A stretch of 64,000 bases of DNA from Eledone cirrhosa (taxonomy: Eukaryota). Positions 1 through 64,000 of the stretch are shown here, piece after piece (the stretch's first letter is position 1; every line of letters begins with the position of its first letter). Location: NCBI GenBank assembly GCA_964016885.1, contig OZ024740.1, forward strand, positions 271,808,001-271,872,000. Reading direction: 5' to 3'. A program made the position numbers and the translations under genes. Under the pieces are notes generated by a model. It was not told where the DNA came from. It saw only the letters and a program-made list of their open reading frames with translations, and searched no databases.

Positions 1-1593
1 TGATCACAGCAGCTGGAGTTAGGGATAAATCCAAATTGCGAGGGCCGGATGAGGCTGTGAGAGCTCCAGAAGTTCCAAAGTGTTTCTCTAACCCAGGATT
101 CCATCAGTTTGGCAATACAGCTAGTAAGACTGACTGGACGATAGTTGACAGGTGACGTGCGGTTGCCCTTTTTGAAAAGGGAAATGACACTGGCAGTTTT
201 CCACTGCTCCGGAGTAGCACCATTGTTGTGACAGTATTGAAAGAAGAAAGAAAGCTGGTGCAAAAGGAAGTACCCGCCACGTTTGAGAAGCAGGTATGTA
301 ACACCATCAAGACCAGGGGAGGCATAGTTGCACTTATTCTTAAGGTGACGTCGCAACATTGCAGGTATAAATTCCATAGTTGTTATGGAATTTGATGTTA
401 GAGATGGTGGAGATCGTACATTCTCGTTTTCAACAGTAAAAATGCTTGCATAGCACTCAGCAATGAGTTCTGCGCATTCTTTGGGATCGTCAGTGATCTG
501 GCTTGTGTGGGGATTGCGAAGAGGACCAACTGGGGAGTGAGCTCTCTGCTTTGAATGTACATATTTCCAGAACACCTTACTGTCAGGATTGGTTGCTATG
601 CACTGTTCAAATTCAAACACTGCCTTTTTTGTCACTTGCTTGAGATGGTTGGAAGATTTATTCCGCTTTTTTCTGTTGGCATCTGATTTATGCAGTTTAT
701 ATTCCCGTTCAGCATTCCAACATTCTTTCCTGGCAAGTCGGATTGCTGAAGTTTCCCAAATTGCACTTTTGCGGTGGGTTTTTTTCTGCTTACGTGGCAC
801 TGATGCTGCACACGCTATCCATATGGAGTCCAGGGTGCTCTGGAGTAGTGTTCACATCTCCAGAGTTATATAACTGATGCCAGTTTAGGCACTGTAGCTC
901 AGTGTAGTACAAGTTCCAATCTGCTTTCTTCCAATCAAAGCAAGCAAATTGGAGATGGTTCTGGTTTTTGTTGCTGCCCGCAAGAGCCAGATTGGCAATG
1001 ATCATAGCATGATCAGAGTCGCCTAGAGGTTCCTCAGTAGTACAACTGATAACCACTTCAGGAGTAGTGGTGAAGAGCAGGTCCAAAGTGTTGTCACCTC
1101 TTGTTGGAGAGGTGACTACTTGTGACCAGTTTGAGTCCAGCACTAGCTCAAGGAAATCGTTTGCACTTTGTGGCCAACGAAAGGGTTCCCAATCGATCTC
1201 AGGATGATTGAAGTCTCCTGCAATAAACACATAAGTGGCTGTTTTCCTGGCAGCAGCTCTGAGGATATCGCAAAGCTGTGTGTCCTGATGGTAGTTTGGG
1301 GGGCGATACACACCACCAAGCAGAAGTGTTGATATGATCATACGTATGTCACAGAAAAAAATTTCTTCTTGTGATTCGTTCAAATCAATGCAAGGAATTA
1401 CCGAAAAGTTTGAACGAATGTAGACCATCACACCATCACCACGGCGATTAATGCGGTCCTTGCGGAACAGGTTGTATGCAGTAATGCTGAAAACCCCATC
1501 ACAGAGTAAAGAATGTGCCCATGTTTCTGTGACTGTGATGAAGTCTGCGTCGATGCTTCTGACGTAGGAGTTAAACAGATATGGGGGTTTCAC
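1..1593 (-). mobile_element. Degenerate CR1/L2-type LINE ORF2 fragment (APE endonuclease leading into RT)
   Basis: ORF 790..1593 has the APE motifs ITVTETW, YRPP, GDFN, LDLLF and SDH. It is frameshifted downstream, and an RT-proximal motif (SQFGF-like) lies near the window start. Confidence 0.85.
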
Positions 1594-5942: not shown

Positions 5943-6184
5943 TTCTATATTTTGACACAAGAATGACTGATGAGAGGACAACATTACAAAGTCAAATTAC
6001 AAAATGGTGGAGTTTTATGCAATAATAACAATACGTGAATTTGTATATCTAGCAATATACTGTATGTTTGTAAACATACCATATATTGCCAGATATACAA
6101 ATTATGTACTTCATACACAGCTATGTTATAGCTAACACTCAAATAACAACAATGATAATAAAAGAGAAATAGAATATCACAAAC

Positions 6185-6265
6185 CTGGCCAGATCCAGAT
6201 ATGGCAGCAACTTTTGAAAAATCAAAGTTATCTGCCTTCAGTTTGTCTAAAAGAATCTCCAATGC
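6185..6265 (-). CDS. XYLB: Xylulose kinase exon 4 (ALEILLDKLKADNFDFSKVAAISGSGQ)
   Basis: 81 nt with AG/GT boundaries, phase 0/0. Confidence 0.95.
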
Positions 6266-23273: not shown

Positions 23274-26200
23274 TTACTTGAGGCCAAGAAATCCATACAA
23301 GTGTTCAATATGTTTTATAACAGTGTCTAAGAAATTGGGTTTTTCTCTGTGGATGGACCGTGCCCCAGAGATAGCTGTGGAAGTGGTACTGGTAGTTGTG
23401 GTTGTCGATGTTGTTGTTCCTGATGTTGTGGCAGATGCTGTCTCCTTGTTAGGGCTGTGTTGTTCACATTTCGTATCAGTTTCTTTGCCTTCTTCTGAAG
23501 ACAGCCTACCACTACCAGACTGACCAGCACCGCTACCAATGCCACCAGTTCCACTTAATGAGCTTTCAGATGCTATCTGGAAACTAGGAGACACCTCTTC
23601 AGCGTTGTTGTCAGTCTCCATTTCATCAGGGTCATTACTGAATCGCTGGCGCTTCGTAGGTGTCTCCATAGACTCATCTGCTTCAGAACTGTTCAAGTGT
23701 TCTGAGCGGGTTAGCTTTTCAGCTGTTACTGGGACTTCTGTTAATGTCTCAGTAGTAGTAATAGAAGAGTCGATGTTAATGCCTGGATTGATACTAGTTG
23801 TGGGAGATGAAGTAACAGCCGATGAAGTTGGAAGAGGACTGGAAAGAGGTGATGATGAAGATGTCTTACTGCTGTTTGGAGCAACCGTTACTGCAGTGGA
23901 AACAGTAGAGCTAGCAGCAGTGGTAGTATTTGTAGTAGTTGCTGTGGTAGTAATTGCAGTAGTAGATAAGCTAACAACACTAGTTGAACTGACAGCAACT
24001 GAAGTATCCTCGTTTTCAGATCTCTGGCGTTGTTGGTAATCACAACACACTCTGTGGATGTGTTGTAGGCTGTCTGTAAGTAAACTACTAAGTTGTTTAG
24101 GAGGTTGAACAGAAAATATTAAAAGCATGGCTCTTAGGTCACCATTAATGCGTTGGCAGATAGAAAAAAGTTCTTGATCAGTTTTTACATTTTCTGTTGC
24201 TGATTTTTCAGCAGTGATAGAAGCCACAAGACTATCAAGTAAACTTTGACCTTGGTCGTTGAGTACTTGTTGATGAACCTTAGGAAAGAAATTGCAGAAA
24301 AACTGGTAGATTATAGGGCTGTTAAGGGACATGCGTTCGTCCAATAGAACAGCATTGACATACTCAATGAAATAATAGCTGTTACACAAAACTTTTATGC
24401 AACTCTTATCAAATTGCTCTAAGTGATAGATTTCATTCCACAATTTGGCAAAATACAGTGAATGAAGGGGAACCCCTTCATAAGCAACCATTGCACTCAG
24501 ATTGATCAAGTCTTTAGTAAGGTTATGTTGATTGACAGCAACCCGGCATAGCAAGTCAATAAACAGGTGATATTGAGTGAAGAAGTCAGACAGTGCAGCA
24601 TCATAACAATCATCAACATTTCGGGAAGCTTCCAGCTGGTTGGAGTGTAGCAACATCTGAAACTGAGGCCTTGGTGGTCTGACATTAGATTTAGAGCAGA
24701 TGGTCTTTTGACCTCTGCGTGGGAAGTAAGGACCAACAGACACTGGCAGGTTGGTGTCCTGAAATGCTTTGTGGGAATCTCGCAGAATTGTAACAATAGT
24801 AGGGATTATGTCCTTTTGGAAAGTGAGTACCATTTCTTTCAGGACTTCAAAACAACTCTGACGGATTTCAGGTGGAGTATAAGAATTCAAGAGAGTAAGA
24901 AGCTTGCGAACAAACTCTGCTCTTTCATTCCAGTTAAAGATGCATTCCTTTACATGTAAAGTACTTGGGTTCTTCCGTTCCAAGTAATGCCTGGCAACTT
25001 TGAGAACAGGCAATAGCAAGGCAAGGAGTTCAACAATATCGCCAGTCACATGACACGCTGTAGCCTCATGGTACATCACATGAAGAGTAAAGAATGCTTC
25101 AGTAATCATCTGCAAACCTTGCTGGTAAATAATGAGTAGTCTGTCATCTGTACTATCAACTAGAATTTTGAAGCTGTTGATGAGTGTTTGCCAGCCAGAT
25201 CGAGCGTCTAAGTGCTGCAAATACATCTGAATAGTAGTTCGCCTGAAGTTGTTGATTGCCTTTAATTCTTCTTCTGAACTATCTTGGTGCTTCATGGACA
25301 TAACTCGCATCATTTTGAAGAGTTCTTCAACAGCAGCAGTATACTGGGCAGGATAAGGAGAAATGTTCTTAAATGCCCACAGAATATTTTGGTGCTGAGC
25401 GAGCTGCCTTGTAAAAGAACGAGACTGTTGACAGCAGATGCGCAGCAGGCCGTAGTAGGCTGGCAACATACAACGGTTGAACATGACAACTTCCTGATCA
25501 TCGTGGTCAGCGAGGATATAATTAAAAGCAATATTTTTACAGACATGTGTGTTGGTGACAATAAGTTTTACATTCTCTGGGCAGTCTAGACACACTTGAT
25601 ACCAGAACATAAGCATGGCTTGCTTGTTGTGGTGCATTGAGATCTGAGGTTCTGATAACTTAGGTTGAAACAGTTGCCATAAATCAGCAAAATAGCGGCC
25701 AAACATTAACTTTTCCTTTTTAGAAATCAAACAGTAAGTGACGACAGCAAAGTAACAAACTAGTTTGCTGGTGCCGTGAACCTGTGGGTCAACGTAGAGA
25801 CGTGCACGCGACAGCAGTGATAACAAATGCTCATAGATTTGATGTAAAACAGCTAGTGCATCCGAGGAGAGAAGCAGTTCTTTATGTGGACTCAGTATGC
25901 TTCTAGCTGTACGGAATGCTTGTCGAAAATTCAGGCTGGGAACTAAGGAAACCAATAAGAAACTTGCTGCATTTCTTACCCGTACATTGCCATGAGCAAT
26001 AAGATAACCTTCAACCCAATTGTCCATTTGCTGCAGTACCCATGCATTGGCAATTTTATTCCTAGTGACTAAATTCGAGAGCCATTCAAGACACTGATGA
26101 GGACAACATTCTGTGAGCTCCCAAAATCGCTGAAGGATATATTGTAAAAAGGGAGGCATCCCTGGTGGACCTCCGATGAATTCAACTAATAAAGACATTA

Positions 26201-29200
26201 ACTTAAAAAATGGCTGTGCCTGTTCTGCATTCAGTTTCTTGACAGCATTGAAAAGCATCTGAACAATTGCCAACGCCAAAGAGTCGTTCCATCGACAGAG
26301 ACTAAAAATTAAATTGCATGTTTGCCGTACATTAATATGGTCTTTAATTTGATTGTAAAGGAATGGAAATCCTTTGCCACCAATGATGCTGTTATAGTCT
26401 TTTTCAGAGAGGCGTAACTGATTGTCTTCTCCTCGAGACCTCTCCACTAGCTGTGCAATCAGTGCTATCATTTTATCCAATGCCAGAGGTCTGTGCTTGT
26501 CTTCAGGCATTGCAATAACATCATCTTCTTCGTCGTCATCTGACAATATTTCAACGTAATTTTCTTGAGCTTTCTGACCCATATAGAAATTAACAATTGC
26601 TGATATAGCGTTGTTATTAATTAAGAAAAAACACTCTTCATCTCCCATTTTGGCAAATTCTAGAAGAAAACTGAAATATTCCGTTAGGTACTTGCTGTGA
26701 GGTCGAACACCTTGCTCAAGAATTGCTAACATACGTCTGATAAATTTGGTAGCACATGTCTGACCACTGAGGCTGTTGGATTTGGTTTGGTCATCATTTG
26801 GATTCCCTGAGGTTAAAAGGTCATACTGGGCACTTTTAAGTTGTGTAATCACATGAACTAATAACCTTTGGAACATCTGGCGCACCATTTGGTTAGGACA
26901 TTTAATTAATATCTGCTGAGGCCACCAATCACATTCTGCCATATGCTCCAGAAACCATTCACATGCAGCTTGGCAGGAATTAAACTGCTTTGTTAGAAGT
27001 TCAATCCACTGAAGCATAGTAGGTTTTTCTTTGGCATGAATATGTGTTTCTAAGACAAATGACGCACTCAACTGTGCAACCATCAGAGGCACTTTTCTTG
27101 GGTCATCTCGAGGTAATGTCGTCTGAATGTAACCACATAACTGTAGCATGAATCCAAAATAAGTGTGCTCGAATATATTTTTATCTTGTAGAAACTGCAT
27201 GTTGTCTTGCCATATCCAGTCAGCAAGTTCCTTTGACAAATCAAAGTTGAATTTTTGTGGTGGTTCTGATGCAGCATCAGATTCTTCATTAGGCACTTCT
27301 TTCTTCTTCGGAGAACACCGTTCATAAAATAACATATAGGCACTGTTGGTCTTCTCAAAAGAAAAATCCATGAATTTGTCAGTAACAGAATCATACGTTT
27401 TACTCGTCATTTCACCCCCGAAACACTCTGCGGCTATTTGGCTAGGATCAAATGGTTTCACTTCAGCATCATTAAATAGGTACCACTTGTCAAATCCAGT
27501 CTTAGATTGACTAATACGATCTCTGATGAAACTATAGTAGTGGCCTCCATCGGCAGTTCCCGTGTGCACAGTTACTCCAATCAGTTCATATTCATGACAA
27601 TCAGATTCATCTTTTGTGAACGTATCGTTCTTGTCATCTTCATCTTGTAATTTATCTGGTCCCATTAAGTTCACTTCCATGTACTGAGACATATCCAAGC
27701 GCAACGGAAAAGAAAAATGTGTATTTACTTTTTCTTTCATCATAGTGACCATATTGAAAGTGTATCGCATGGTATTAAAACACAAGATCTTGGGAAGTTT
27801 TCTGAAACATGCCCGCTTTTCAGCACGGACTTTCTTTTGACATTTCGAGCAAGTATACATATTGTCTCCTTCTAGCATATCTTTTACTGTAACTTCATCT
27901 AATGAGTCATATAGATTTTTCATGTCAGTAACTTGACAACGGACAGTATAAAACTCTTCAACTGTGCGACTAACATGTGGACAATCGAGAGAAACAACAT
28001 TATTAGTTAGTACACCTCCAAATAAACTTTTCACAAGTTTTTTCATATCTGCAGACATTTCTTCTAGTTTTGTTATTAAATCAGTAAAGAACTCAGTCAT
28101 ATCTTTTTGTTCTCCTGTATTTAGAGGTTGTTTGTCCATGGTGTATGTCTTGCAGAAGCTCTTTGGGTTATAGGCTTTTCTTTCACTTTCTTGAAGGTAA
28201 GCAAATATTTTTTGAAGTTCAATCAGTGTTGCTTCATGCTTTGTCTGGTCTGTGCATTTTGCTTGTAAAACTGACTGCCTCGCTTGTGGAATCATGTACA
28301 AATGCTGCATACAAGTAGCCATATAACATGTAGCTCCAAGGTTAGTCAAACCTACATAGCCACATTTTGATCTTCCATCTTCATGTGGCCAATAATCCCA
28401 TGGGTAGGGAACATGTGAGTCTTTACTATGCTGCTTCATCATTTTCTCATGTAGAATAGCATAGTTTTCAACACTACCCTTTACCATTTCTACTAGCAAG
28501 TCATAAGCAGCAGCTCGAGATGCTTGACTTTTACACTTGGGCAACTTTCTGTTTACTGGTGATGGCAATGCAAAGAGACACCAAAAGATGTCTTCCAGAA
28601 ATACTCTACCATTTTCAGATGTTTTGAATGGGGGTTCATGTTTTAAAATAGCAGTACAAAGATTTAAAAGACCAATCAGGGCATCATCCTCCTCATAGCC
28701 ATTCCTGGTTTCATAAAAAGAGCGAGAGATTATATGATTAGCAATTTCTTTACATAACATGTCTAAATTCACAAGACTGTCAGATTTAGTATTTGCATCT
28801 TCTTTTGAAATATTATCAACAAATCTGCATACCAACCAGAAGTAGTCACGGCATCCAGGACCGTATGTCTCTTTCTTTTCCTCTTGTAGGTAGGCATCAT
28901 TTACTCGAGGTTTTATTAATAAAGCTTCTGGCAGAAATGACAGCATACTAGACAATATGGGTAACAGAAATGCATAACCATTTCTGTTTTCGGAAGTCTT
29001 TCCCAAGCATAATTGATAAAGTCCTGTACAAACTTCTTTGCGGACACAGGGTTCTGGAGCTTCCAGTGTTAATCTTTTCAACCAAGAATTAAAATTTGGA
29101 GATGAACAAAATGCATCCTTTAGTTCTTCACATGAATATGCCCAAGATACGAGAAAATTTAAAGCATAATGAACAACTTCCGACCTCCCCCAAGTTCCTG

Positions 29201-32200
29201 TATTGCATAAATTGTTTTCTATTGGTATAGCAGCATCAAACAAAATTTGCATGATGATTTGTAAGTCTGTATTGACATTCAGCATTGACAGAATAGTTTG
29301 GTTGAGACGAGGTACAACAATTTTATCACAATTACTTTTTTGACGTTTCATTTTCTTACGGGGTAATTCATAATTTTCAAAAAGGTCATCATGGCCTGCT
29401 TCGGCATCTGACCTCTCCACAGAAAACTGACTTATTAGACGTAGTAAATAAGCCAAGCATTCTTGATTCCACTGGTTCCAAGTTTCATCTGCTTTAGCTT
29501 GCAGTGTGCTTGATTTAAATATATCAACTAAATGGCTGAGTCCTCCTTTTGAAATGAACTGTTTGGTCCAGACTTCTTCAGGAACTTCTGGACCTTCCAT
29601 AACTTGATCGCTCTCGGCATCCCCTCCACCTCCAGATCGAGAAATTGATTTTTTTTTACTTTTAGGATTTTTCGACAATGCTTCAACAATCTGTAAGGAA
29701 TACATTAAACGGTGCGGTCTCTGTGGGTCTAGCAGACGATTCCAGTCAATAGGCTCTTCAGATGGAGTCTCTTCTTTGTAGGGAGTGGATGGCATAATAC
29801 TTCGGAAGCCGTATAACATCTCAGGACTTGTTGGTAATAACATCAATAATTCCCACACTCGGCGAGAAAATATTTTTGCTTTACTTTGTAAATTCCATCT
29901 TTCTTTACTTTCTAAATCAGCCGTTGAAAAGCTAAGGTTACTAAGTTGCTCCAGCAAAGTAAGAAGACGCTCAAAGCTAGGCTCTTGCAGAAGAATCATC
30001 ATGGGTAGCTGTTCAGGACTAGGAGATGGCAGGCATGACGATGGTAATGTTCCATCCATCTTTCTCTGGGGTCTACTTGCACCCACAGAAACAAAAACAA
30101 GTTGCAAATCCTTAAACTGCATTTCACTTAAAGTTTTCTCATCATTGTCTACAGTAAGCTCCTGCCCAAGAGTAATCATCCGTATTGGCCCATCTCCTAG
30201 CATAGCGCCAAGTATAGGAGACAACATCGAATTACCATGGTTACTAGAGGACTGTTGACGTTGAAGTTGTTGCTGTTTCTGGAGAGCTTCCCACCAACGA
30301 GCAACTTCAGCACGTAATTCTGCAATGAGATCAGTAGACAACATGTCTAAGGGAGTCTTTTCAGAGATACCAGCTGGTTGTAAGAGAATTCGGATTGGGC
30401 TTGACTGTTTCTCATGAACATTACATTGGTGACTCACAATACCATGGCCATCAATTTGCCAGTTTCTGAGGTGATAAGCATATCTTTTTCGAAAACCTTC
30501 CAAGTGATTTTTTAACAAAATCAAACCTCTTTGAATAACAAGAAGATTCATGTCGGGATTTTCTTCAACTTTCTGAGAGGCAGTTAAAAGACTGTCCATG
30601 CATCGACGAATAAATTCATCTTCTTTTTCTAAAAGTCCATTTCCATAATTGATGTAATAGTTGTTCAAGAACTGGATGGCTGTGATACTGACATCTGTAT
30701 TCAAAGCCCGTAGAGCAATTTGCCACAGCTGGTCCATGCCGCACACTTGGTCCTCAGACAATTGATTATCTATAGAAGCATTTGCAATTCTTGCCAAGTG
30801 TGATAACTGTTGGAAAAGATTCAAACCAATCATACTCATTGATTCAGGTTTAAGCTGAGGCATTTTCTCAAGAAATATGTGCTTGAATGTTTCCAAACAC
30901 ATGGCATGGTGATGCTCTTTGCTCTTGGCTTGATTAAGAAACCAGCTCAAGCATTCATCAGAACATTCTGGATCTAAAGCAAGACAAGCCCACAAAGTAT
31001 CCACTTGTTCTTGACTAAGACGGAAACTATCTGGTGATCCTGGAGCACTGAACACACCAGTTAAAAATAGAAGCCTCACTTTAATTTGTTCTTTGTGACT
31101 GTAAAGGGATGTACTTTTCTGCAGATCACATTTTCGGCTCTCAGTGTAGTGGATGAGATCGCTAAAAAAATGAGACATCATGTTCAGTTCTTTTTCTGCC
31201 CACATAGTCACAGCATGATTGTCAGAACCACTCCGGTACTGTTGAAAAGAGCTAAAGATTTTGGGCAGAAGACGCAGAGATACCACTACAGACCGGTGCG
31301 CAGCCACATTTTCAATGCATGCTTCAATGAACTTGATTTTAATGCGCCTATCTGTTGAAAAGCACACTAAAGTGTAAAGAGCTTTCTCTGCTTCAACAAC
31401 CAAGCCATCAGGTAGCAAACATGCCATGTCATCTTGCACAAGATCCCAGAGAAGTGTGTTCCCTTTCTTGCAGACATCATCAAATGTAAAATCAGTACAA
31501 GATGAAACAGAAAGTTCTTTCTGAGATGGTCTTGGATGAATGACATGAGGCATGTGGGTATGATACATTGATGCCATACTGGCGAGATGTTGTTGCATTT
31601 GGTGTGTATTGAAATGAGGATGTGCATTGATCTGAGCTAATTCCTCATCACTGAGAACTTCTTCCCCATCAAAATCTGCCATGTTTTTTTCTGATTTCGT
31701 ACTCATTCTAGAACTGTGGCAGCTACCTTCAGGACTCAATATGTCCTCAATATAGTCACTCTGGATATGTCCATGTGGGTGAGCTTGCATATGTTGGATA
31801 TAATTAGCACAGTCAAACATTTCGGCTTCATCAGCACGGTTCTCAAACTCCTGAGCAGATTGGGAGGAAGCCACACCTTGAATACTGCTGTCAGCACTGT
31901 CGTGGTTGGCTAATGTGGACGGTCTGGCTTCAGAATCATGAGAATCTCGTGAATCCTGCGACAAGTTACCAGGATCTGAAATAGCCATTTTTTTTTCACT
32001 GTCTCCACCAACTTCCAAGTCTTTACAGTGACCAGTAATACCATCACTATCACCACGAGCTTCAAGAGAAACCGAACCAGGATGCAAGCTTTGTTGAATT
32101 CTGTTCTGATTTTCTGACCTCTGTAACCCTGTCCGTATACGATAGCCTTTCTTACCTTGTCGCCGAAGAACAAGACAAGCAGGTTGTTTAAGAAGTCCTT

Positions 32201-34550
32201 GCTGTTGGAGCTGTATATGATGTTCTTGCAGTGCATGTTGAGTCTCGTAACGAAGTTTTGTCTCGTGCATTAGCTTTGCTCTTCTAGATTCATTAGCATC
32301 AAAATCTGAGCTGTCCTCACTCTCACCATGACAAGAATGTTTCATATGTACCATTTTAGTATGCTTTAGAATGTCATCATCAGATTCTTCATATTCTGAT
32401 TCCATTTCTTCCTCTTCCTCTTCTTCTACTTCTTCCTCCTCCTCCTCTTCTTCTTCTTCCTCCTCCTCTTCTTCTTCTTCCTCTTCTTCATCATCATCAT
32501 CTTCATCAGAACATGTACCTTGCTCTGTATCACGGTAAGCTTGAGCATTTCGGTTTCTCTGGGGTCTTGGTTGACATTTTAATGGTACTGGCTGTCTTTT
32601 GACACCCCGACGTTTTTGCATTCCATGTTTCAGTGAAGTGCATATTTGACCTTCTCCAGCACTAGAACCACTGCACTCTACATCACTTTCACTACCACTA
32701 CTGCCACCTCCCACCTGGTTAGGGGCCACAAACTCTTGGCCAAGGCCAGTAAGCTGCCGATGAGTACCTTCATCCATGTCACTTTCATCACTGTTGTCGC
32801 TGTTAGCCGAAAACTGCTCAGAGCTTTTCTGCTGTTTCTCAGAACAGTCATCATGCTTTTTGGAATGAGAAATCTGATGTCGTGTTGAGCCAGGTTTATT
32901 CTCAGCCTTGCTCAACTCCTTTTGATCATCCTCTGATGGTAACTCCTCATTTTTGTTATCAACCATTCCAATTCTTTTGTTGCTGTCCATCTCAGGGACT
33001 TTGTCTGTTTCCCCCTCAGAAAGTTGTAGGCTTTCACTGCTACTCATTTCAGGCTTGCTTGATTTACCATGCTCCAATTCCTCTTCTTCTTGTTCAATAG
33101 CAGCCACAATGCTCTGTGGCTGGTCAGCTGGTTGTTGTTGTTGGTGATGGACGGCAGCATTATGGCTCTGTGATGTAACACAAGTACTCCAGATGCACTT
33201 GAGGAGTGCAGATGCTAAGTATAAAGTAGATTCTGTGTGTGCAGAGGGATCAAGAGCAGATACTAAGTTAGATAAATGCTGAACCAATTGTAGTTCTAAA
33301 TTTTTTATAAGTGGAATCAATATATCATAAACTTGCTTACTGCAATGTTTCATCTGACTGGCAGTCCATATACAGTCGATATGTTCATTCGTGATTTTTC
33401 CTTCAACGGCAAGAAAATTTAAAATAATCTGGCTCTGTTTAATGATTTCCACATGCAAGTTTGGACCAAAAATATGCTCAATAATCTTATTTTCTAAAAG
33501 CCATTTAGCTAAATGATTTCCTACATTTTCTGCATCTACTAAAGTATCATTATTGCAGCATTCATTATACAAATCAATCTGACGGTTAATCTGAGCTATA
33601 CCCGCCAGTCGAATTGTTAGAGTTGAACAAGTAAAATATTTAAAGGCTAAATCCAAACCTTCTTTGTCATACGTAAAATGAGTATCCAATGGTTCTTTTA
33701 CAGCTGCCCACATGAGGTCTGTCATGTTCCGGGTGCCGGCCATTCGTAGGTCTTTATCGGATAATTTACACATATAACGAATAACAGCAGTTCGTAATGG
33801 CACAATACATTGCATCACAGTAGCGATATTCATCCAAAGACGAAGATTTGCGATAATATTGATGAGAGTATGAGCCACTGTGAATGGGAGCGTGTCCGGT
33901 GTAGCTTTTTCGAAGCATTGTTGCAGTGCCTGGACACCGTTACTATCACAGAAAAAACAAACATTGCGCAAGAGATACAGAGGAACTTCAGAATCGGAGA
34001 TTTCACAATAATTATTCAAAGCTCGAGTTTCCTGCTGAGACAGTTCTTCTAGAGATGAATGAACGACATGTTTGTAAGCCACATACGAGGGGAAGTTCAT
34101 GAGAAAGACTTTCGTAACTACCTGAAGTAATTGGTCTTTTTCTTCCATGGCCCAAACTTCGGATTCATCGAGTTCTTCTGCATCATTTTTTTCCGTTTCT
34201 TCCGATGACAAGCCATCAATTGATGATTTGTTCTTGTCAGAAATATCAGAAACAGCATCTTCGGAACAATGATCACGCTTTTCTTGTTTTTCTTTTTCCT
34301 TAGCGTAGTCATCAGGCAGAGTCTGAATGTGCCTAATCGCAACAGTCAACACGATTTGAACAATATTGTTCAATCGTTCAAAGTTCTTAAATTCTTTGTA
34401 GCAGCACATACATTGCTTCTGAGGCCATATATTTACGTATTGAATCACAGACAGAATCTCATTCTTTCCCAGACGAAGACCACCACCGCTGTGAAGCCGC
34501 TCATCGTGGCTATCGAATAAGGACAACAGGCCAGAGCATACATCACACAT
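23274..34550 (-). CDS. USP34: Ubiquitin carboxyl-terminal hydrolase 34, single coding exon, 3758 aa
   Basis: Starts MCDVCSGLL..GGGLRL..INIWPQKQCMCCYKEFK-like, resembling the USP34 N-terminus. Cys box GLTNLGATCYM, His box VHTGTADGGHYYSFIRD, WYLFND, and conserved C-terminal blocks (NIAFNYILADH). No stop or intron over 11,277 nt. The ORF-track start at 34571 is a TTG; the first ATG is at 34550. Confidence 0.96.
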   Translation of the reverse strand: MCDVCSGLLSLFDSHDERLHSGGGLRLGKNEILSVIQYVNIWPQKQCMCCYKEFKNFERLNNIVQIVLTVAIRHIQTLPDDYAKEKEKQEKRDHCSEDAVSDISDKNKSSIDGLSSEETEKNDAEELDESEVWAMEEKDQLLQVVTKVFLMNFPSYVAYKHVVHSSLEELSQQETRALNNYCEISDSEVPLYLLRNVCFFCDSNGVQALQQCFEKATPDTLPFTVAHTLINIIANLRLWMNIATVMQCIVPLRTAVIRYMCKLSDKDLRMAGTRNMTDLMWAAVKEPLDTHFTYDKEGLDLAFKYFTCSTLTIRLAGIAQINRQIDLYNECCNNDTLVDAENVGNHLAKWLLENKIIEHIFGPNLHVEIIKQSQIILNFLAVEGKITNEHIDCIWTASQMKHCSKQVYDILIPLIKNLELQLVQHLSNLVSALDPSAHTESTLYLASALLKCIWSTCVTSQSHNAAVHHQQQQPADQPQSIVAAIEQEEEELEHGKSSKPEMSSSESLQLSEGETDKVPEMDSNKRIGMVDNKNEELPSEDDQKELSKAENKPGSTRHQISHSKKHDDCSEKQQKSSEQFSANSDNSDESDMDEGTHRQLTGLGQEFVAPNQVGGGSSGSESDVECSGSSAGEGQICTSLKHGMQKRRGVKRQPVPLKCQPRPQRNRNAQAYRDTEQGTCSDEDDDDEEEEEEEEEEEEEEEEEEEEVEEEEEEEMESEYEESDDDILKHTKMVHMKHSCHGESEDSSDFDANESRRAKLMHETKLRYETQHALQEHHIQLQQQGLLKQPACLVLRRQGKKGYRIRTGLQRSENQNRIQQSLHPGSVSLEARGDSDGITGHCKDLEVGGDSEKKMAISDPGNLSQDSRDSHDSEARPSTLANHDSADSSIQGVASSQSAQEFENRADEAEMFDCANYIQHMQAHPHGHIQSDYIEDILSPEGSCHSSRMSTKSEKNMADFDGEEVLSDEELAQINAHPHFNTHQMQQHLASMASMYHTHMPHVIHPRPSQKELSVSSCTDFTFDDVCKKGNTLLWDLVQDDMACLLPDGLVVEAEKALYTLVCFSTDRRIKIKFIEACIENVAAHRSVVVSLRLLPKIFSSFQQYRSGSDNHAVTMWAEKELNMMSHFFSDLIHYTESRKCDLQKSTSLYSHKEQIKVRLLFLTGVFSAPGSPDSFRLSQEQVDTLWACLALDPECSDECLSWFLNQAKSKEHHHAMCLETFKHIFLEKMPQLKPESMSMIGLNLFQQLSHLARIANASIDNQLSEDQVCGMDQLWQIALRALNTDVSITAIQFLNNYYINYGNGLLEKEDEFIRRCMDSLLTASQKVEENPDMNLLVIQRGLILLKNHLEGFRKRYAYHLRNWQIDGHGIVSHQCNVHEKQSSPIRILLQPAGISEKTPLDMLSTDLIAELRAEVARWWEALQKQQQLQRQQSSSNHGNSMLSPILGAMLGDGPIRMITLGQELTVDNDEKTLSEMQFKDLQLVFVSVGASRPQRKMDGTLPSSCLPSPSPEQLPMMILLQEPSFERLLTLLEQLSNLSFSTADLESKERWNLQSKAKIFSRRVWELLMLLPTSPEMLYGFRSIMPSTPYKEETPSEEPIDWNRLLDPQRPHRLMYSLQIVEALSKNPKSKKKSISRSGGGGDAESDQVMEGPEVPEEVWTKQFISKGGLSHLVDIFKSSTLQAKADETWNQWNQECLAYLLRLISQFSVERSDAEAGHDDLFENYELPRKKMKRQKSNCDKIVVPRLNQTILSMLNVNTDLQIIMQILFDAAIPIENNLCNTGTWGRSEVVHYALNFLVSWAYSCEELKDAFCSSPNFNSWLKRLTLEAPEPCVRKEVCTGLYQLCLGKTSENRNGYAFLLPILSSMLSFLPEALLIKPRVNDAYLQEEKKETYGPGCRDYFWLVCRFVDNISKEDANTKSDSLVNLDMLCKEIANHIISRSFYETRNGYEEDDALIGLLNLCTAILKHEPPFKTSENGRVFLEDIFWCLFALPSPVNRKLPKCKSQASRAAAYDLLVEMVKGSVENYAILHEKMMKQHSKDSHVPYPWDYWPHEDGRSKCGYVGLTNLGATCYMATCMQHLYMIPQARQSVLQAKCTDQTKHEATLIELQKIFAYLQESERKAYNPKSFCKTYTMDKQPLNTGEQKDMTEFFTDLITKLEEMSADMKKLVKSLFGGVLTNNVVSLDCPHVSRTVEEFYTVRCQVTDMKNLYDSLDEVTVKDMLEGDNMYTCSKCQKKVRAEKRACFRKLPKILCFNTMRYTFNMVTMMKEKVNTHFSFPLRLDMSQYMEVNLMGPDKLQDEDDKNDTFTKDESDCHEYELIGVTVHTGTADGGHYYSFIRDRISQSKTGFDKWYLFNDAEVKPFDPSQIAAECFGGEMTSKTYDSVTDKFMDFSFEKTNSAYMLFYERCSPKKKEVPNEESDAASEPPQKFNFDLSKELADWIWQDNMQFLQDKNIFEHTYFGFMLQLCGYIQTTLPRDDPRKVPLMVAQLSASFVLETHIHAKEKPTMLQWIELLTKQFNSCQAACEWFLEHMAECDWWPQQILIKCPNQMVRQMFQRLLVHVITQLKSAQYDLLTSGNPNDDQTKSNSLSGQTCATKFIRRMLAILEQGVRPHSKYLTEYFSFLLEFAKMGDEECFFLINNNAISAIVNFYMGQKAQENYVEILSDDDEEDDVIAMPEDKHRPLALDKMIALIAQLVERSRGEDNQLRLSEKDYNSIIGGKGFPFLYNQIKDHINVRQTCNLIFSLCRWNDSLALAIVQMLFNAVKKLNAEQAQPFFKLMSLLVEFIGGPPGMPPFLQYILQRFWELTECCPHQCLEWLSNLVTRNKIANAWVLQQMDNWVEGYLIAHGNVRVRNAASFLLVSLVPSLNFRQAFRTARSILSPHKELLLSSDALAVLHQIYEHLLSLLSRARLYVDPQVHGTSKLVCYFAVVTYCLISKKEKLMFGRYFADLWQLFQPKLSEPQISMHHNKQAMLMFWYQVCLDCPENVKLIVTNTHVCKNIAFNYILADHDDQEVVMFNRCMLPAYYGLLRICCQQSRSFTRQLAQHQNILWAFKNISPYPAQYTAAVEELFKMMRVMSMKHQDSSEEELKAINNFRRTTIQMYLQHLDARSGWQTLINSFKILVDSTDDRLLIIYQQGLQMITEAFFTLHVMYHEATACHVTGDIVELLALLLPVLKVARHYLERKNPSTLHVKECIFNWNERAEFVRKLLTLLNSYTPPEIRQSCFEVLKEMVLTFQKDIIPTIVTILRDSHKAFQDTNLPVSVGPYFPRRGQKTICSKSNVRPPRPQFQMLLHSNQLEASRNVDDCYDAALSDFFTQYHLFIDLLCRVAVNQHNLTKDLINLSAMVAYEGVPLHSLYFAKLWNEIYHLEQFDKSCIKVLCNSYYFIEYVNAVLLDERMSLNSPIIYQFFCNFFPKVHQQVLNDQGQSLLDSLVASITAEKSATENVKTDQELFSICQRINGDLRAMLLIFSVQPPKQLSSLLTDSLQHIHRVCCDYQQRQRSENEDTSVAVSSTSVVSLSTTAITTTATTTNTTTAASSTVSTAVTVAPNSSKTSSSSPLSSPLPTSSAVTSSPTTSINPGINIDSSITTTETLTEVPVTAEKLTRSEHLNSSEADESMETPTKRQRFSNDPDEMETDNNAEEVSPSFQIASESSLSGTGGIGSGAGQSGSGRLSSEEGKETDTKCEQHSPNKETASATTSGTTTSTTTTTSTTSTAISGARSIHREKPNFLDTVIKHIEHLYGFLGLK

Positions 34551-34595
34551 TCTCGGAATCTTGGGAAACAACGCAAGGAATTCTTGCTGAATAAA

Positions 34596-57824: not shown

Positions 57825-58092
57825 AGTCTTAGACATGAACAAAAACAGAGAGGCAGTACAAATATGAGTTTATTAGGTTCATGTATGTAAAAAGTAAACA
57901 GAAATAACAAAACAAACAGCACAGTATATGGAAGGAATATATTTATTATATATAATATATACATATATATAATTATATACATATATATATATATAAAATT
58001 ATAGTAGGAGAATAAACAACCAAGTTCTTGAAAAAATATTTATTTGTTTACAATTGTTTCAGAGGACATAATCACAATCTGTATATATATTT

Positions 58093-58159
<67 letters not shown>

Positions 58160-58192
58160 ATGTGTATGTATATATATATATATATATATATA

Positions 58193-58372
58193 TAGGAGAA
58201 AGTGTCACTCCGACGGCTGAGCTCAAGTCGTTTCGAGTCCAGAAATAGCCGTCAAAACGGTTTGAGCTCTGCCGTCGGGGTCACACTTTCTCCTATTACC
58301 CACTCTACTACCCTAAGTATTGAGTACACTGGTGCGTTATGGTCCATCTGGTTCCTTACCACAACTCCCTTG
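58193..58372. mobile_element. Fold-back-headed repeat between (TA)n arrays
   Basis: 34-bp inverted arms (3 mismatches) followed by a body shared with 59164-59300 and, inverted, with ~19140-19200. Confidence 0.7.
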
Positions 58373-58463
<91 letters not shown>

Positions 58464-58465
58464 TG

Positions 58466-58656
58466 AGAAAACTCATTGCTAGAATAGCTGTTAAAACCAC
58501 TAAATGCTGTCAAAGACAGCCAAGGGCAAAAATGTCTCAGAGGACAGAGACCATCAACCAGTGGTCAACAGAGAGACAATCCACAAGGTGGGTGACAAGT
58601 CGCTGCCTTTGACAGCATTTAGTTGTTTTAACAGCTGTTCTAGCAATGAGTTTTCT
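58466..58656. repeat. 55-bp inverted repeat with ~80-bp spacer
   Basis: agaaaactcattgctagaatagctgttaaaac..tgtcaaagacagc and its reverse complement. Confidence 0.85.
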
Positions 58657-58888
58657 AATTTTTATGTTTTCAAATACACTCTTGCTTCGTCTCAATCAGA
58701 GATAACATTGTTTTTTCACACATATATATATATATATATATATAACCAAAGATTAATATGGTTCATTGATTACTCAATGAATATAGTTTTATAATAGATT
58801 AAAAGCACTCTACAAAGAAGTTTTCTGGAGTTATTAATATTATTCAAAATATTAATAAATAAAGACATTCACATAATCAAAATATATG

Positions 58889-58950
58889 TTTTATTATATA
58901 TATTTCGAAGGTACTGTGCTGTTTTTTCAGTACGTCCTCGTCAGATAAAA
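58889..58950 (-). ncRNA. Type I hammerhead motif in the left arm of a 125-bp inverted repeat
   Basis: Minus strand: TTTTAT-CTGACGA-GGACGTACTG(AAAAAACAGCA)CAGTACCTTC-GAAA-TATATATA-ATAAAA. Confidence 0.85.
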
Positions 58951-59041
58951 TACATGAATTGATGTATGACATACCTCAACGGTCTTGATGGTTCAATTCC
59001 AGTATTGGCAGAATTCATGTATTTTGTCATCAATTCATGTA

Positions 59042-59100
59042 TTTTATCTGAAGAGGACGTACTGAAAAAACAGCACGGTACCTTTGAAATATATATAAAA
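59042..59100 (+). ncRNA. Degenerate hammerhead copy in the right arm
   Basis: TTTTAT-CTGAAGA-GGACGTACTG..CGGTACCTTT-GAAA-TATAT-ATAAAA. The helix III segment is 3 nt shorter than in the left arm. Confidence 0.65.
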
Positions 59101-59339
59101 CATATATTTTGATTATGTGAATGTCTTCATTTATTAATATTTTGAATAATATATATATATATATAAGAACAAGTATGACCCCGACGGCAGAGCTCTGCCG
59201 TCGGAGTCATACTTGTTCTTATTACCCACTCTACTACCCTAAGTATTGAGTACTTTGGTGCGTTATGGTCCATCTGGTTCCTTACCACAATTCCTTCGTT
59301 ATATATATATATATATTTATTTATTTCTATTTCATTTAG

Positions 59340-59599
59340 ATTACACACAATACCTCAATCAAGTTTCAGACACAGTTCAAGGAACCACAGTAACATTTGT
59401 CAGTCATGAAGATGGAGTTTCAATTGATTCAAAACAAACAGCAGCTGATTTGTGTCAACAAATTTCACATGCTGTGTTTGGGGAGATTACAGATAGCCAT
59501 GCAGAAGTTGCCAGTGTCTTTACTCCTTTGTTCTTTGAACAACCTCAACCCGTGCCTTCAGCTAACGAAGTCATCAGTGTCAAGCCTCCTGTTGGAAAA
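59340..59599 (+). CDS. ZNF236: ZNF236 coding exon 2 ((D)YTQYLNQVSD...VISVKPPVGK)
   Basis: Bounded by ttcatttag and gtaagt, open frame, phase 1/0 compatible with the neighbouring exons. Confidence 0.75.
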
Positions 59600-60557
59600 G
59601 TAAGTCACAGCTAAGGTTTTCATGTTATGTAAATTGATGTATAGACACATGCTAATTCTCTATCTTTATCCCTCCCTCTCTTCTCTCTCTCTTAATAGTT
59701 TCAGTCATTGAACTGAAGTGATACTTGGGCACCACCTTGAAATGTTTTAATCAATCATATTGAGCTCAGCACTTATTCTTTTTCAAATTTGGTACTTATT
59801 TTATTGATCTTTGTCAAAAATGCTAAGTTACAAGTCCAGACAAACAGCACAGAGAGAGAGAGAGAGAGAGAAAGAGAGACAGACACTTTTGTAGAGTTTC
59901 CTTCTGCCAAATTGGTCAATATGAGAGTATAGAAGACACTTGCTCAAGTTGTCATGTAGTGAGAATGATCCTGAAATCACTTGGTTGAAAAGTGAACTCC
60001 TTAACCACATAACCATGTCTGCACCTATTTAATTTTCTCTTGCTTTCTTATTTTCTCTTTTGCTTTATTTCTCTCTCTCTTTCTCTTGCTCCTTCCCCAT
60101 TTCTCAATTTATCTATTGTTTCTACATCATCATGTTCACCATTTCCATTTTGTCATGGGCTGGAATGAAATTCCTATTGTAGGTTTTCTATGGTTGCATG
60201 TCCTTCTTGTCACCAATCCATTACTTACTTATTAAATATGGTATATAACGCTAACGCATTCATGTGTGTTATTCTGTGTTCAAAATCTTATATCAATAAA
60301 TAGAAAAGAAAATGTTGCTTGAAAATCCTTATTAAAAAAACAAATCAATTTTTCTATTAATACAATGAGTTATTTTTTTTATCATCTTTGTCCTACACAG
60401 GGCCTTTCAATCTTTATCTGCTAGACACCTCACATTAACCTATATTTGGATATTCATCAATTTCAGTTATACCTCTTAGGGTAAAATCATTTTTTTGTAA
60501 TTTCCTAACCCCTTTATCACAAAAGTATATTTATTCCTAGTGATTTTGTATTGGGGA

Positions 60558-60639
<82 letters not shown>

Positions 60640-60682
60640 GCAACTCATTGCTGTTATTAAAACATTTCATTATTTTAATATT

Positions 60683-60897
60683 AAGTGGATTGGCAATATT
60701 GATGGAGCGCCGGACAACATGCTTTGCAGCATATAGTTACGGCCCTTTATGTTCTGAGTTCAAATCCCACCAAGGTTAGCTTTGTCTTTCATTCTTATGG
60801 GGTTGACAAAATAAAGTACCAGTAATGCACTGGGGTCGATTTAATTGACTTATCCTTTCCCTTAAAATTACTGGTCTTGTGCTTAAATCAAAAACCA
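60683..60897 (+). mobile_element. Family A SINE
   Basis: Has the head, B box gagttcaaatcc and the aaataaagtaccag core. Confidence 0.8.
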
Positions 60898-60991
60898 TTA
60901 TTTTAATATTAAGTTATGTAACTTTGTTTTTGATATTTGCTTTTGAACAAGTTACAGGTAAACAAGCATCTCTCTTTGTATTATATTTTAG

Positions 60992-61294
60992 GGTCCCTAT
61001 CAATGTAAAAGCTGTGATAAAAACTTTCCCAAATGGAATCAGTTACAGCGTCATAGAAAGACGCACGAAGAAGATAAGCCATATCGATGCACATACTGTA
61101 ATGATTCTTTTAATGTCGAAGATAACTTGAAGCTTCACTTGGCTACACATCCACAGAATGATGACCGACAACCGATGTGTCCTCAATGTGGGAAAACGTT
61201 CACTCGAATTGCTAGTCTCAAAGCTCATATCATGCTGCATGTGAAAGAGGAAAGCCTCATGTGTACAGAATGTGGTGATGAATTCAGTCTTCAG
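60992..61294 (+). CDS. ZNF236: ZNF236 exon with three C2H2 fingers and the start of a fourth
   Basis: [80 protein letters not shown]. Matches my recollection of the vertebrate ZNF236 block [27 protein letters not shown]. 303 nt, AG/GT boundaries. Confidence 0.92.
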
Positions 61295-62557
61295 GTGAGT
61301 TATCTTCTTTCTCTTCTCTATCACCACCACCACCATCTTCTATGCCATGCTCATTGCTGTTCCATCATCATCATTATCATCACCATTGTCGTCTTCATCA
61401 TCATCATCATCATCATAATCTTACATATTTTCTTCCTAATCATTACTTGATTCAAACCTTGATTTTTTTTATTATTTTCAAGTATGCCAGCACCTGGTCT
61501 TGAAACTGAATCCTTTGAACTACTGTCATGTGAATATAATTTTGCTCTTCTGTCCCTTTTTTTCATCAGAGCCAATTGGATAAACATATGCAAGAGCATC
61601 GAGAAGAGCATGGCAACAATCGTTCTTACTGCTGTCGACAGTGTTCACAGGAATTCTCCAAAATAACATTACTACGGGAACATATGAAACAACACTATCG
61701 CATCAAGTAAGTTAGAAAATTGTTATATCTGCTGCAGTTGTTTTGACAGCTGAGGCAAGTGTAGAGAAGACAAAAAAGCAATCTTGTTTTGATTGTTGTC
61801 TCCAAGATAGTATTATTCACTGAAAATAATGTCCTGTTCTTTAACCAGCTATGTCATTGCATCTAGTCAAAGTTAGCTCTGCAGAATTTCTTTCTCCCCA
61901 TTATTATATGCTTGCAGGAGAATGAGCCAACAAGGGATCCTCTGCATGGTTTCTTTATCTGCTAGAAATGACATCCAAATCTCTCTCAAATCATATTCTT
62001 CTGTCTTTTTCCATTACTGTTTAGTCAGTGAGGGAAGGTCAGTGCCTATAACTCATTATTTTTTTAGGTACTCTAAGACTGGTTGTAGGAAGAAAGAAAG
62101 TTATTCTCAAATGGGTGATCTGGCTTGAATGCTTGCAACAGAGTGGGCTCTGCTAAAGGCTCCCAAGAATCAGTAGGTTATGTTCAACTGAACAATGGAT
62201 TAAGTCAACAACATAAGAATGGAAAGAGCTGGGACAAATATCAAAAGGCGTCTCAATCGATGCTTTAACTGTTCCACCAATACGCTTCTCTGGACTGGTA
62301 CCTTATTTTATTGGCCCTGAAAGGATGGGAAATGAAGTTGGCTTTAGCAGGATTTGAACACAGAACATAGGGTCAGAACAAATTAGATAAGAAAGGCCAT
62401 GTTGGATAATGTAGTATAAGTAATAAAACAAAAAATATTGGTTGGTCATAGTAGGAATCAGGGCTGATCTGGGGTGAAATAACAACAACCTACTGGAGAT
62501 ACTAATTATAACTATTCTGGGTCATATAGAATTACGTATATTGGTAATGGAAACAAC

Positions 62558-62765
62558 TACCATATATACTCAAATATAAGCCAAGGAATATGTGACCCAA
62601 AAACTGATTGTAGATGGCGGGGGTCAGCTTTTATTCGGCATCAATATTTTGACGATTTTCACCAACTTCAAATTCTATGTAAATAAGGTTTGGCTTTTTT
62701 TCTCAGACATAAAATAGTGGGGTCAGCTTTTATTTATATTGGCTTATATTCGAGTATATATGGTA
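62558..62765. mobile_element. pogo/Tigger-like MITE, complete
   Basis: TIRs taccatatatactcaaatataagcc / ggcttatattcgagtatatatggta. Confidence 0.8.
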
Positions 62766-63007
62766 AATGCTAATGTCAGGTTGTAAACTATTGCTTTCTC
62801 AGATGGTTGTTTGGTACTTTATTTACTTGCCTATCTGTGCTGAAAGGAAAACATACAATTAGTTGTTTCAAGGGAGCATGGGTTGTAGTAGTATTGGTCA
62901 AAGCAAACTGCTTGCCAAGTAAGTTAATAATAGAAGTGTATATGAAGGCATATACAATATGTTTATGCATAATAAATATATATAAGTTTCATTATAACTG
63001 TTCTGAA

Positions 63008-63444
63008 GGCGCATGGCTTAGTGGTTAGAGCATTGGGCTTGCAATCGAAAGGTTGTGAGTTCAATTTTTGGACCAGGTGATGTGTTGTTTCCTTGAGCAA
63101 GACACTTTATTTCACATTGCTCCAGTTTACTCAGCTGTAGAAATGAGATGATAGGACTGGGGTCCCTATCATTCCACTGCAAAGTGGTCGTGGAGGTGCC
63201 ATGGCAAAAAAGCACCCAGCTCATACTGTAAAGTGGATGTGTAGGCGCCACGGAAAAAAAGCACCCAGCATCATTGTAAATGAGGTTGGTGTTAGGAAGG
63301 GCATCCAGCTGTAGAAATCAAGCCAGAATCAGTTCCCGTATGAGCAAGACATGGTCAGCTGACCGGACACTGCCCACAACAGGACAACCCGTCTAACCCA
63401 TGCTAGCGTGGAAGAACGGACGTAAAATGGTGATGATGATGATG
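63008..63444 (+). mobile_element. Full-length family B tRNA-derived SINE with RTE-like tail
   Basis: A box tggcttagtgg, B-box-like gagttcaatt, core ccttgagcaagacacttta, tail ggacgtaaaatggtgatgatgat. Confidence 0.85.
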
Positions 63445-63467
63445 TTCTAAGCTGTGGTGTCACAGCT

Positions 63468-63557
63468 ATCTCAGTAGCCGAGTGAGAATGCCAGACTCTA
63501 GAGTTTCAGAATTTTTTAATCCATCATCAGTGATGTTTTCTCACTTGGGACAGAGAT
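63468..63557 (-). ncRNA. Extended type I hammerhead ribozyme, copy 1 (predicted cleavage after GUC at 63494)
   Basis: Minus strand: AGTGAGAA-AACA-TCA-CTGATGA-T-GGATT(AAAA)AATTC-T-GAAA-CTCTAGAG-TC/TGG-CA-TTCTCACT. Confidence 0.85.
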
Positions 63558-63760
63558 AAGAATAAGCTATAGCTTATATGTTCTTTGCATATAAAACATC
63601 TGGAAAAGTTCATTTGCATTTAGTGCATGTCTAACTTGGCTAGGATTAATTAGCAGTAGCTCTAGCATAGCCTGATTCATAAGAGAATTATATCTTAAAG
63701 CATATATAATATATTTATGTAAAATAAACATATATGTCTCGCTATGAATATTCTAAAGCT

Positions 63761-63848
63761 ATCTCAGTTGCCATGTGAGAATGCCAGACACCAGTGTTTC
63801 AGGATTTTTAAATCCATCCTCAGTGATGTTTACTCACTCAGTACTGAG
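63761..63848 (-). ncRNA. Extended type I hammerhead ribozyme, copy 2 (predicted cleavage after GUC at 63787)
   Basis: Minus strand: GTGAGTA-AACA-TCA-CTGAGGA-T-GGATT(TAAA)AATCC-T-GAAA-CACTGGTG-TC/TGG-CA-TTCTCAC. Confidence 0.85.
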
Positions 63849-64000
63849 AAAAGAATAAACTATAGCTTAGCAGATGTTTTATATGCAAAAAGTATATAAG
63901 CTTATTAAAACATTCTGAAACAACTAAAAAACATTCATAGTGAAACCTATATATGTTTATTAAACATAAACATATCATATATACCTACACATACACCTCT

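Follow-up and report, generated by a model that had tools for sequence, protein, structure and literature searches.

A probable retrozyme relic bearing two hammerhead motifs in an intron of an octopod ZNF236-like gene

The two hammerhead motifs close to the end of the window (the whole 64-kb stretch of DNA analysed here) are interpreted, with reasonable confidence, as parts of an aged and mutated copy of a dispersed ~310-nt non-LTR retrozyme family, a copy that was likely inserted into the intron by Penelope-like element (PLE) machinery and is probably no longer efficient at self-cutting. Metazoan non-LTR retrozymes, as described from coral, the mussel Mytilus and axolotl, are units of 170-400 nt with a GC content below 45% that carry type I hammerheads and are expressed as circles (PMC7229834). 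The locus would extend this class to cephalopods: no report of cephalopod retrozymes was found in the literature searched, the supplements and subscription papers of which may hold one, and the words 'cephalopod' and 'octopus' are absent from the main text of PMC7229834, the supplement to which may list such repeats. Unremarkable as a relic in itself, the locus matters as a pointer, chiefly to the insertion anatomy of the family as a whole and to a young sister family.

Two hammerhead motifs in a ZNF236-like intron

Both motifs are of type I and lie on the minus strand, with cleavage sites at 63787 and 63494 and a spacing of 293 nt. This arrangement had been described in the initial annotation, together with the CUGANGA and GAAA cores and the GUC triplets, and is confirmed in the sequence, as are the 5-bp helix II with a U-U at its base, the change of helix III (CAC..GUG versus CUC..GAG) and the AACA/CA mismatch. 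The features of the locus are as follows:

61558..61707, plus strand: ZNF236-like exon 5' of the host intron, donor after 61706 (next exon 64942-65097, beyond the window)
62924..63002, minus strand: remainder of a partial third unit (unit positions 51-129), terminating at the short 3' end of the family
63005..63445, strand not given: later insertion of very high-copy repeats, splitting the third unit
63445..63493, minus strand: start of the partial third unit (about unit positions 1-50), interrupted by the later insertion and overlapping the 3' arm of hammerhead copy 2
63464..63576, minus strand: hammerhead copy 2, type I (core CUGAUGA 63530-63524, GAAA from 63507, cleavage C 63494)
63494..63786, minus strand: full unit between the two cleavage sites (length 293 nt, GC content 31%, identity to the 311-nt family majority 87.5%)
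63757..63869, minus strand: hammerhead copy 1, type I (core CUGAGGA 63823-63817, GAAA from 63800, cleavage C 63787)
63869 to 64034, plus strand: inverted, internally deleted copy, head to head at the 5' end, its last 34 nt beyond the window end

The canonical core (C3-U4-G5-A6-N7-G8-A9, G12-A13-A14, A15.1-U16.1 and an NUH triplet) is present in both copies, while the G10.1-C11.1 pair closing helix II is absent from both, with U-U in its place. Three helices with helix I open can be drawn for each copy, being well formed in the family majority and weakened at the locus; either copy has an intact core and retains four of six proximal helix I pairs, and copy 2 additionally has a G-U within helix II and a palindromic helix III. 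The two hammerheads constitute a direct repeat of 113 nt with 86% identity. When both strands of the window were scanned generically for type I hammerheads, these two motifs were the only matches, and 100 dinucleotide shuffles gave 0.01 type I matches per window and never two. The Rfam check proposed by the initial annotation failed to recover them, the hammerhead model matching nothing in 58000-64000 at E values up to 1, and the pair was not reported by Tandem Repeats Finder. Positions 63506-63897 are covered without difference by contigs of two public runs, possibly from the assembly's own sample, indicating that the pair is not an assembly artefact.

The exon at 60992-61294 is 90% identical to a ZNF236-like protein of Octopus bimaculoides and at most 73% identical to the other 119 listed matches. 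The plus-strand exons 61558-61707 and 64942-65097 are consecutive in the same protein, with flanking exons of C2H2 type, and the hammerheads are therefore intronic and antisense in an octopod ZNF236-like gene; the cephalopod origin, ZNF236 host and antisense intronic position suggested earlier from the sequence are thereby upheld. Given that the ZNF236 transcript carries the non-catalytic strand, the host pre-mRNA is not expected to be cut.

Both motifs are parts of a single insertion extending from 62924 to 64034, which SINE-like repeats subsequently interrupted. Its order on the minus strand is the inverted copy, hammerhead 1, the full unit, hammerhead 2 and the third unit, the last being split by 63005-63445 and resuming at 63002-62924. 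The inverted copy comprises unit positions 203-236 (63869-63902), a short hammerhead remnant (63904-63921) and unit positions 49-155 (63928 to 64034), terminating at the long 3' end of the family; the outer ends of the insertion are thus inverted repeats that stop at +129 and +155, one being 26 nt longer. The interrupting repeats, which we take to be SINEs, are covered by reads thousands of times as deeply as the hammerheads and include a weak tRNA-like match (63007-63076; E 0.68). The initial annotation had overlooked three features: the inverted copy at the 5' end, the partial third unit on the far side of the SINE-like repeats and the fixed 3' ends of the family.

The ~310-nt family and the ends of its copies

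A DNA search of the genome with the two-hammerhead query yielded 1332 first-look candidates, 40 of which were scored and contained 56 matches with identities of 69-90%, the query locus aside; two core patterns gave 10 and 57 exact genome matches, compared with 0 for controls. After removal of 6 neighbour stretches and 8 duplicates from 76, there were 62 non-redundant loci of about 3 kb, 30 from the DNA search and 32 from the pattern. A single hammerhead is found in 43 of these, a direct pair 266-341 nt apart in ten and another layout in nine. Dimers are a minority, since nine of the ten direct pairs stem from the 30 loci recovered with the two-hammerhead query and one from the 32 pattern-picked loci. 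The genome-wide occurrence of tandem copies, proposed earlier as a check, is thus borne out for dimers but not for longer arrays, none of the 62 loci carrying three hammerheads at unit spacing. A further single copy of the family lies on the minus strand about 80 kb downstream of the locus (G000:C1:271952192-271952219, L050).

The units are non-coding, 266-341 nt long and 31-36% GC. A 311-nt family majority was derived from ten full units and folds as a circle with a z-score of -5.7 relative to shuffles, versus -1.9 for the unit of the locus; over the hammerhead, copies diverge from it by a median of 16% (64 near-full copies of 83). Helix III of the family is a 10-nt palindrome, reduced to 8 nt in one subfamily in which a U-A pair closes helix II. 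The U-U at the base of helix II had been called unusual, yet it occurs in 27 of 45 copies and also in the axolotl repeat HHR_Amex2 as described (PMC7229834). Among the copies from the DNA search, 10 of 43 carry a U4-to-C core variant or its CpG-decay product (e.g. L003:1522-1613, L019:1496-1595, L025:1498-1596 and L064:1475-1567). Derivation of CUGA from an ancestral CCGA by CpG decay was considered and rejected, as 45 of the 57 pattern matches have CUGA and only 5 have CCGA or CCAA.

At the level of sequence, unit size and GC content, flanking type I hammerheads, a tandem pair and dispersed copies all agree with a non-LTR retrozyme, and the repeat very likely represents a family of retrozyme type. 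The class assignment made earlier is consequently retained, now for a dispersed family of ~310-nt units with direct dimers at 10 of 62 loci. As far as they are described in PMC7229834, metazoan retrozymes share with the octopod repeat the AT-rich non-coding unit of ~300 nt, the type I hammerhead, the dimers, the self-paired circular fold as seen in the octopod family majority, and the presence of PLEs in the same genome. The octopod family differs in being old and mostly single-copy, in lacking arrays of more than two hammerheads in 62 loci and in its cephalopod host, and its cleavage and circle formation are predicted from sequence. HHR_Amex2, in which the U-U-closed helix II is likewise found, reaches 22% cleavage as a monomer and more as a dimer, and both HHR_Amex1 and HHR_Amex2 are described as working best as dimers (PMC7229834); HHR_Amex1 resembles the young octopod sister family in its 1-bp helix III with a palindromic tetraloop. 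The 10-nt palindromic helix III of the ~310-nt family sets it apart from the axolotl repeats, the likeness to which is one of description rather than sequence comparison. A short palindromic helix III and hammerhead activity in dimers have both been described (PMC4209133).

The copies have characteristic ends. Measured from the cleavage site, the 3' ends of 20 of 62 loci lie at +115..131 and those of a further 17 at +148..164, about 30 nt apart, with 12 and 10, respectively, of the 32 pattern-picked loci in the same intervals; these bins were set after inspection of the data and span about a ninth of the unit while holding 60% of the ends. Only 2 of 62 3' ends lie within 15 nt of the cleavage site, many single copies are longer than one unit, and several loci, including that in ZNF236, have been shortened by later insertions. 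The 5' ends are ragged, ranging from -39 to -298, and are abutted by an inverted piece at 10 of 62 loci as opposed to 3 of 124 control stretches at the same score. PLE insertions are reported to be marked by 5' truncation, partial tandems, an adjacent inverted 5'-truncated copy and a 30-40-bp tail at one end (PMC8557442). A fixed 3' end with an optional tail, 5' truncation, an inverted 5' copy and partial tandems are all found in the ~310-nt family, the end anatomy of which is that of PLE insertions. Penelope-type mobilisation of the family is therefore proposed with good confidence; no target-site duplication was identified. The template would have been a circle or an uncut multimer, as the copies do not stop at the cleavage site in the manner of linear monomers cut twice.

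The likeness extends to PLEs and their pseudo-LTR (pLTR) hammerheads as described in PMC4209133 and PMC8557442, in which the fixed 3' end with its optional 30-40-nt tail, 5' truncation, partial tandems and inverted 5' copy, as well as a hammerhead near the 3' end and microsatellite-rich flanks, are also encountered. Unlike PLEs, the octopod family has no reverse transcriptase (RT) or GIY-YIG ORF, and its core and helices are full canonical ones rather than a minimal motif; no sequence common to the family and the PLE 3' ends examined was found. Animal retrozymes have been derived from PLE pLTRs in a preprint that sampled 31 vertebrates, 3 insects and a coral, with no mollusc, on the basis of homology to pLTRs (10.64898/2026.07.22.740005). 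Its vertebrate retrozymes are dispersed monomers and dimers, some of them intronic, that occur with Neptune and Poseidon PLEs, similar to the octopod family, for which the evidence differs in consisting of insertion anatomy and in coming from a mollusc. The published link to Penelope is one of co-occurrence and pLTR homology, whereas the ends and inversions of dozens of copies bear directly on mechanism.

In the mechanism proposed for the family, the source RNA would either have cut itself, as a double hammerhead formed through the palindromic helix III, and then circularised, or have remained multimeric. Copying by a Penelope-type enzyme, combining reverse transcriptase and endonuclease, would then have started from a fixed priming point, 120-155 nt downstream of the cleavage site, and continued across the intact hammerhead junction over 1 to 2.5 units, so that the 5' end came to be ragged and often inverted. 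At the ZNF236 locus, the two copies would have decayed independently after insertion, chiefly at CpG sites.

Decay of the ZNF236 copy and competing readings

The AACA/CA internal loop, earlier presented as a feature of the motif, proved to be two lost helix I pairs: the family majority (AACG/CGUU) has seven possible pairs in proximal helix I, two of which are gone from both copies, each through a G-to-A change at a CpG site. Across 83 copies, the states of these sites (TG/CA 11, CA/CA 10, CG/CG 8 and TG/TG 5) fit random CpG decay. In the 45 DNA-search copies, mismatches affect 110 of 242 CpG positions, 478 of 3308 other non-core positions and 42 of 460 core positions, the core being slightly better conserved than other non-core positions (9% versus 14% mismatch). 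The two copies differ from the majority at 7 and 12 positions, with only the two CpG changes in common. The helix III change earlier regarded as compensatory is so within copy 2, the double change keeping its own perfect palindrome, but it spoils pairing between the copies (-5.1 kcal/mol versus -13.2 to -15.2 for like pairs). Helices I and II cost +7.1 and +6.0 kcal/mol in the two copies, compared with +0.8 in the family majority and +1.1 in the young sister family; these costs and the weak helix III cross-pairing argue against the earlier portrayal of this copy as a working unit. Folding as a double hammerhead costs +17.7 kcal/mol at the locus, +3.2 in a majority dimer and +12.4 in a dimer of the young sister family, the monomer of which has a folding penalty of +8.4. 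Folding penalties are only suggestive, given that the young sister family scores poorly too, and the full active-fold penalty was set aside as an unreliable test of activity. Covariation within the family does not exceed that of shuffles (324 of 500 as high) in 48 aligned copies, chosen from 57 near-full ones by exclusion of nine with large gaps; 80% of cells pair in this alignment, and the missing covariation is as expected of relics. This copy appears fairly likely to be a poor or silent source of circles.

Were the pair still active, an antisense transcript in the ZNF236 intron would yield a 293-nt RNA or circle, possibly under selection, a reading regarded as unlikely. The locus is the only one of ten direct dimers in which both cores, here with their GUC triplets, are intact, none of the 64 near-full copies is less diverged than copy 1, copy 2 has preserved a perfect helix III palindrome through two changes, and an axolotl hammerhead with a U-U-closed helix II is active. 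Selection may have retained the intact pair, and the tandem A-C/C-A mismatches may be tolerated inside the long outer stem. However, about one dimer with both cores intact is expected by chance, as 15 of 45 copies are intact, and the locus was also the query. Against activity also stand the loss of two of six proximal helix I pairs in both copies, the cost of helices I and II, the weak helix III between copies, the decayed fold of the unit and a host pre-mRNA of the wrong strand; among genomic dimers of Xenopus, moreover, cleavage is reported in only one of nine (10.64898/2026.07.22.740005).

The origin of the family could also be read otherwise. It would improbably be a detached, 5'-truncated pLTR or 3' end of an autonomous PLE, rather than a circle-forming retrozyme, with the dimers arising from partial tandems. 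Every insertion hallmark is PLE-like, the copies are mostly single, Neptune-type 3' hammerheads share the U-U-closed 4-bp helix II, and dispersed single or opposite-strand hammerheads of Schistosoma have been ascribed to truncated PLEs (PMC4209133). Upstream of the hammerhead, however, the copies re-enter their own unit (to -298, with ten full units of 266-341 nt) and never an ORF, the family majority folds as a strongly self-paired circle, and a related young family makes pure tandem arrays; should retrozymes derive from PLEs, little would separate the two readings. A local, minisatellite-type duplication of a single hammerhead copy at the DNA level would account for the same two CpG-decay changes in both copies, but CA/CA is a frequent state (10 of 83 copies), the remaining differences are all private (5 and 10), and ten dimers with unit spacing and fixed ends occur elsewhere, making this explanation highly improbable. 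An old insertion of a retrozyme family copied by PLE machinery is the preferred reading of the locus.

Sister families, Penelope-like elements and other features of the window

PLE loci revealed two related hammerhead families. The young sister family has 24,157 exact genome matches to a 31-nt core pattern (control 0), the first 100 of which include runs at about 420-510-nt spacing and head-to-head pairs. One of its arrays (G000:C3:308736567-308738996; L117:7168 into L127) contains six units spaced 468-511 nt apart that are 98-100% alike outside a TA tract. It has 77 of 120 bases in common with the ~310-nt family majority, a 1-bp helix III with a palindromic tetraloop, a GUA triplet and a U-U at the base of helix II. 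The base of helix II is A-A in the second sister family, which occurs at 3 of 20 loci (L116:674, minus strand; L125:67 and L126:3858, plus strand) and the helix III of which is similar, with a length of 10 nt. Across the three families, helix III, 6 to 10 nt long, is palindromic or nearly so, and in helices I and II both bases of a pair change without loss of pairing, though only three lineages are compared (proximal helix I pairs AU,CG,UG,GC,CG / GC,UA,GU,GC,CG / AU,UG,GC,UA,CG). These interfamily double changes are the best sign in the alignments of selection on the fold and suggest that it acted in the source RNAs. The possibility that the array lying 3 kb behind a PLE in L117 forms part of that PLE was rejected; as the PLE has its own 3' hammerhead-like motif, the array is a separate element.

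The genome contains 10,596 GIY-YIG candidates, and all 150 that were scored lie above the cut-off. Most of 30 translated elements have a Cys-rich linker of Neptune type. The Neptune-type PLEs (L077-L104 and L107-L125) carry hammerhead variants 3' of their GIY-YIG frames, with a U3-A8 core change and a palindromic helix III, and some of their frames, of 840-940 aa, are open; in one family, the U3-A8 variant has a U-U-closed 4-bp helix II much like that of the ~310-nt family. Searches with hammerhead and unit profiles found no autonomous PLE sharing the family hammerhead or 3' end in 30 plus 20 endonuclease loci, from more than 10,000 candidates, and recovered only the sister families. No RT or GIY-YIG frame is present at the ZNF236 locus or beside 61 of the 62 family loci, the single exception being a weak endonuclease-region match (E 7e-4).

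Taken across these families, the data tentatively suggest, at somewhat less than an even chance, an unreported octopod radiation of hammerhead retrozymes comprising old, A-A and young families, the young one probably making abundant small circles at present, in which insertions show a PLE-type enzyme priming at a fixed internal point and copying more than one unit through the intact junction. If true, this would provide direct genomic evidence of rolling reverse transcription of circular RNA by PLE machinery. For cleavage assays and the detection of circles, the young sister family offers the best target and an easy one, in animals of interest for RNA biology.

Elsewhere in the window, a near-perfect 63-nt hairpin at 59161-59225, with Rfam miRNA matches below threshold, is probably a MITE-like repeat, since related palindromic repeats occur in other loci (L117:6267-6378, L025 and L040). 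Fragments at 3-1596 and 5987-6265, both on the minus strand, are taken from their translations to be LINE-type endonuclease and RT pieces and a xylulokinase-like exon. A single frame of 3773 aa, uninterrupted by stops and containing UCH and DUF3517 domains, occupies 23277-34595 on the minus strand, forming an 11-kb single-exon gene. It resembles USP34, its vertebrate counterpart has many exons, and it is possibly a retrogene.
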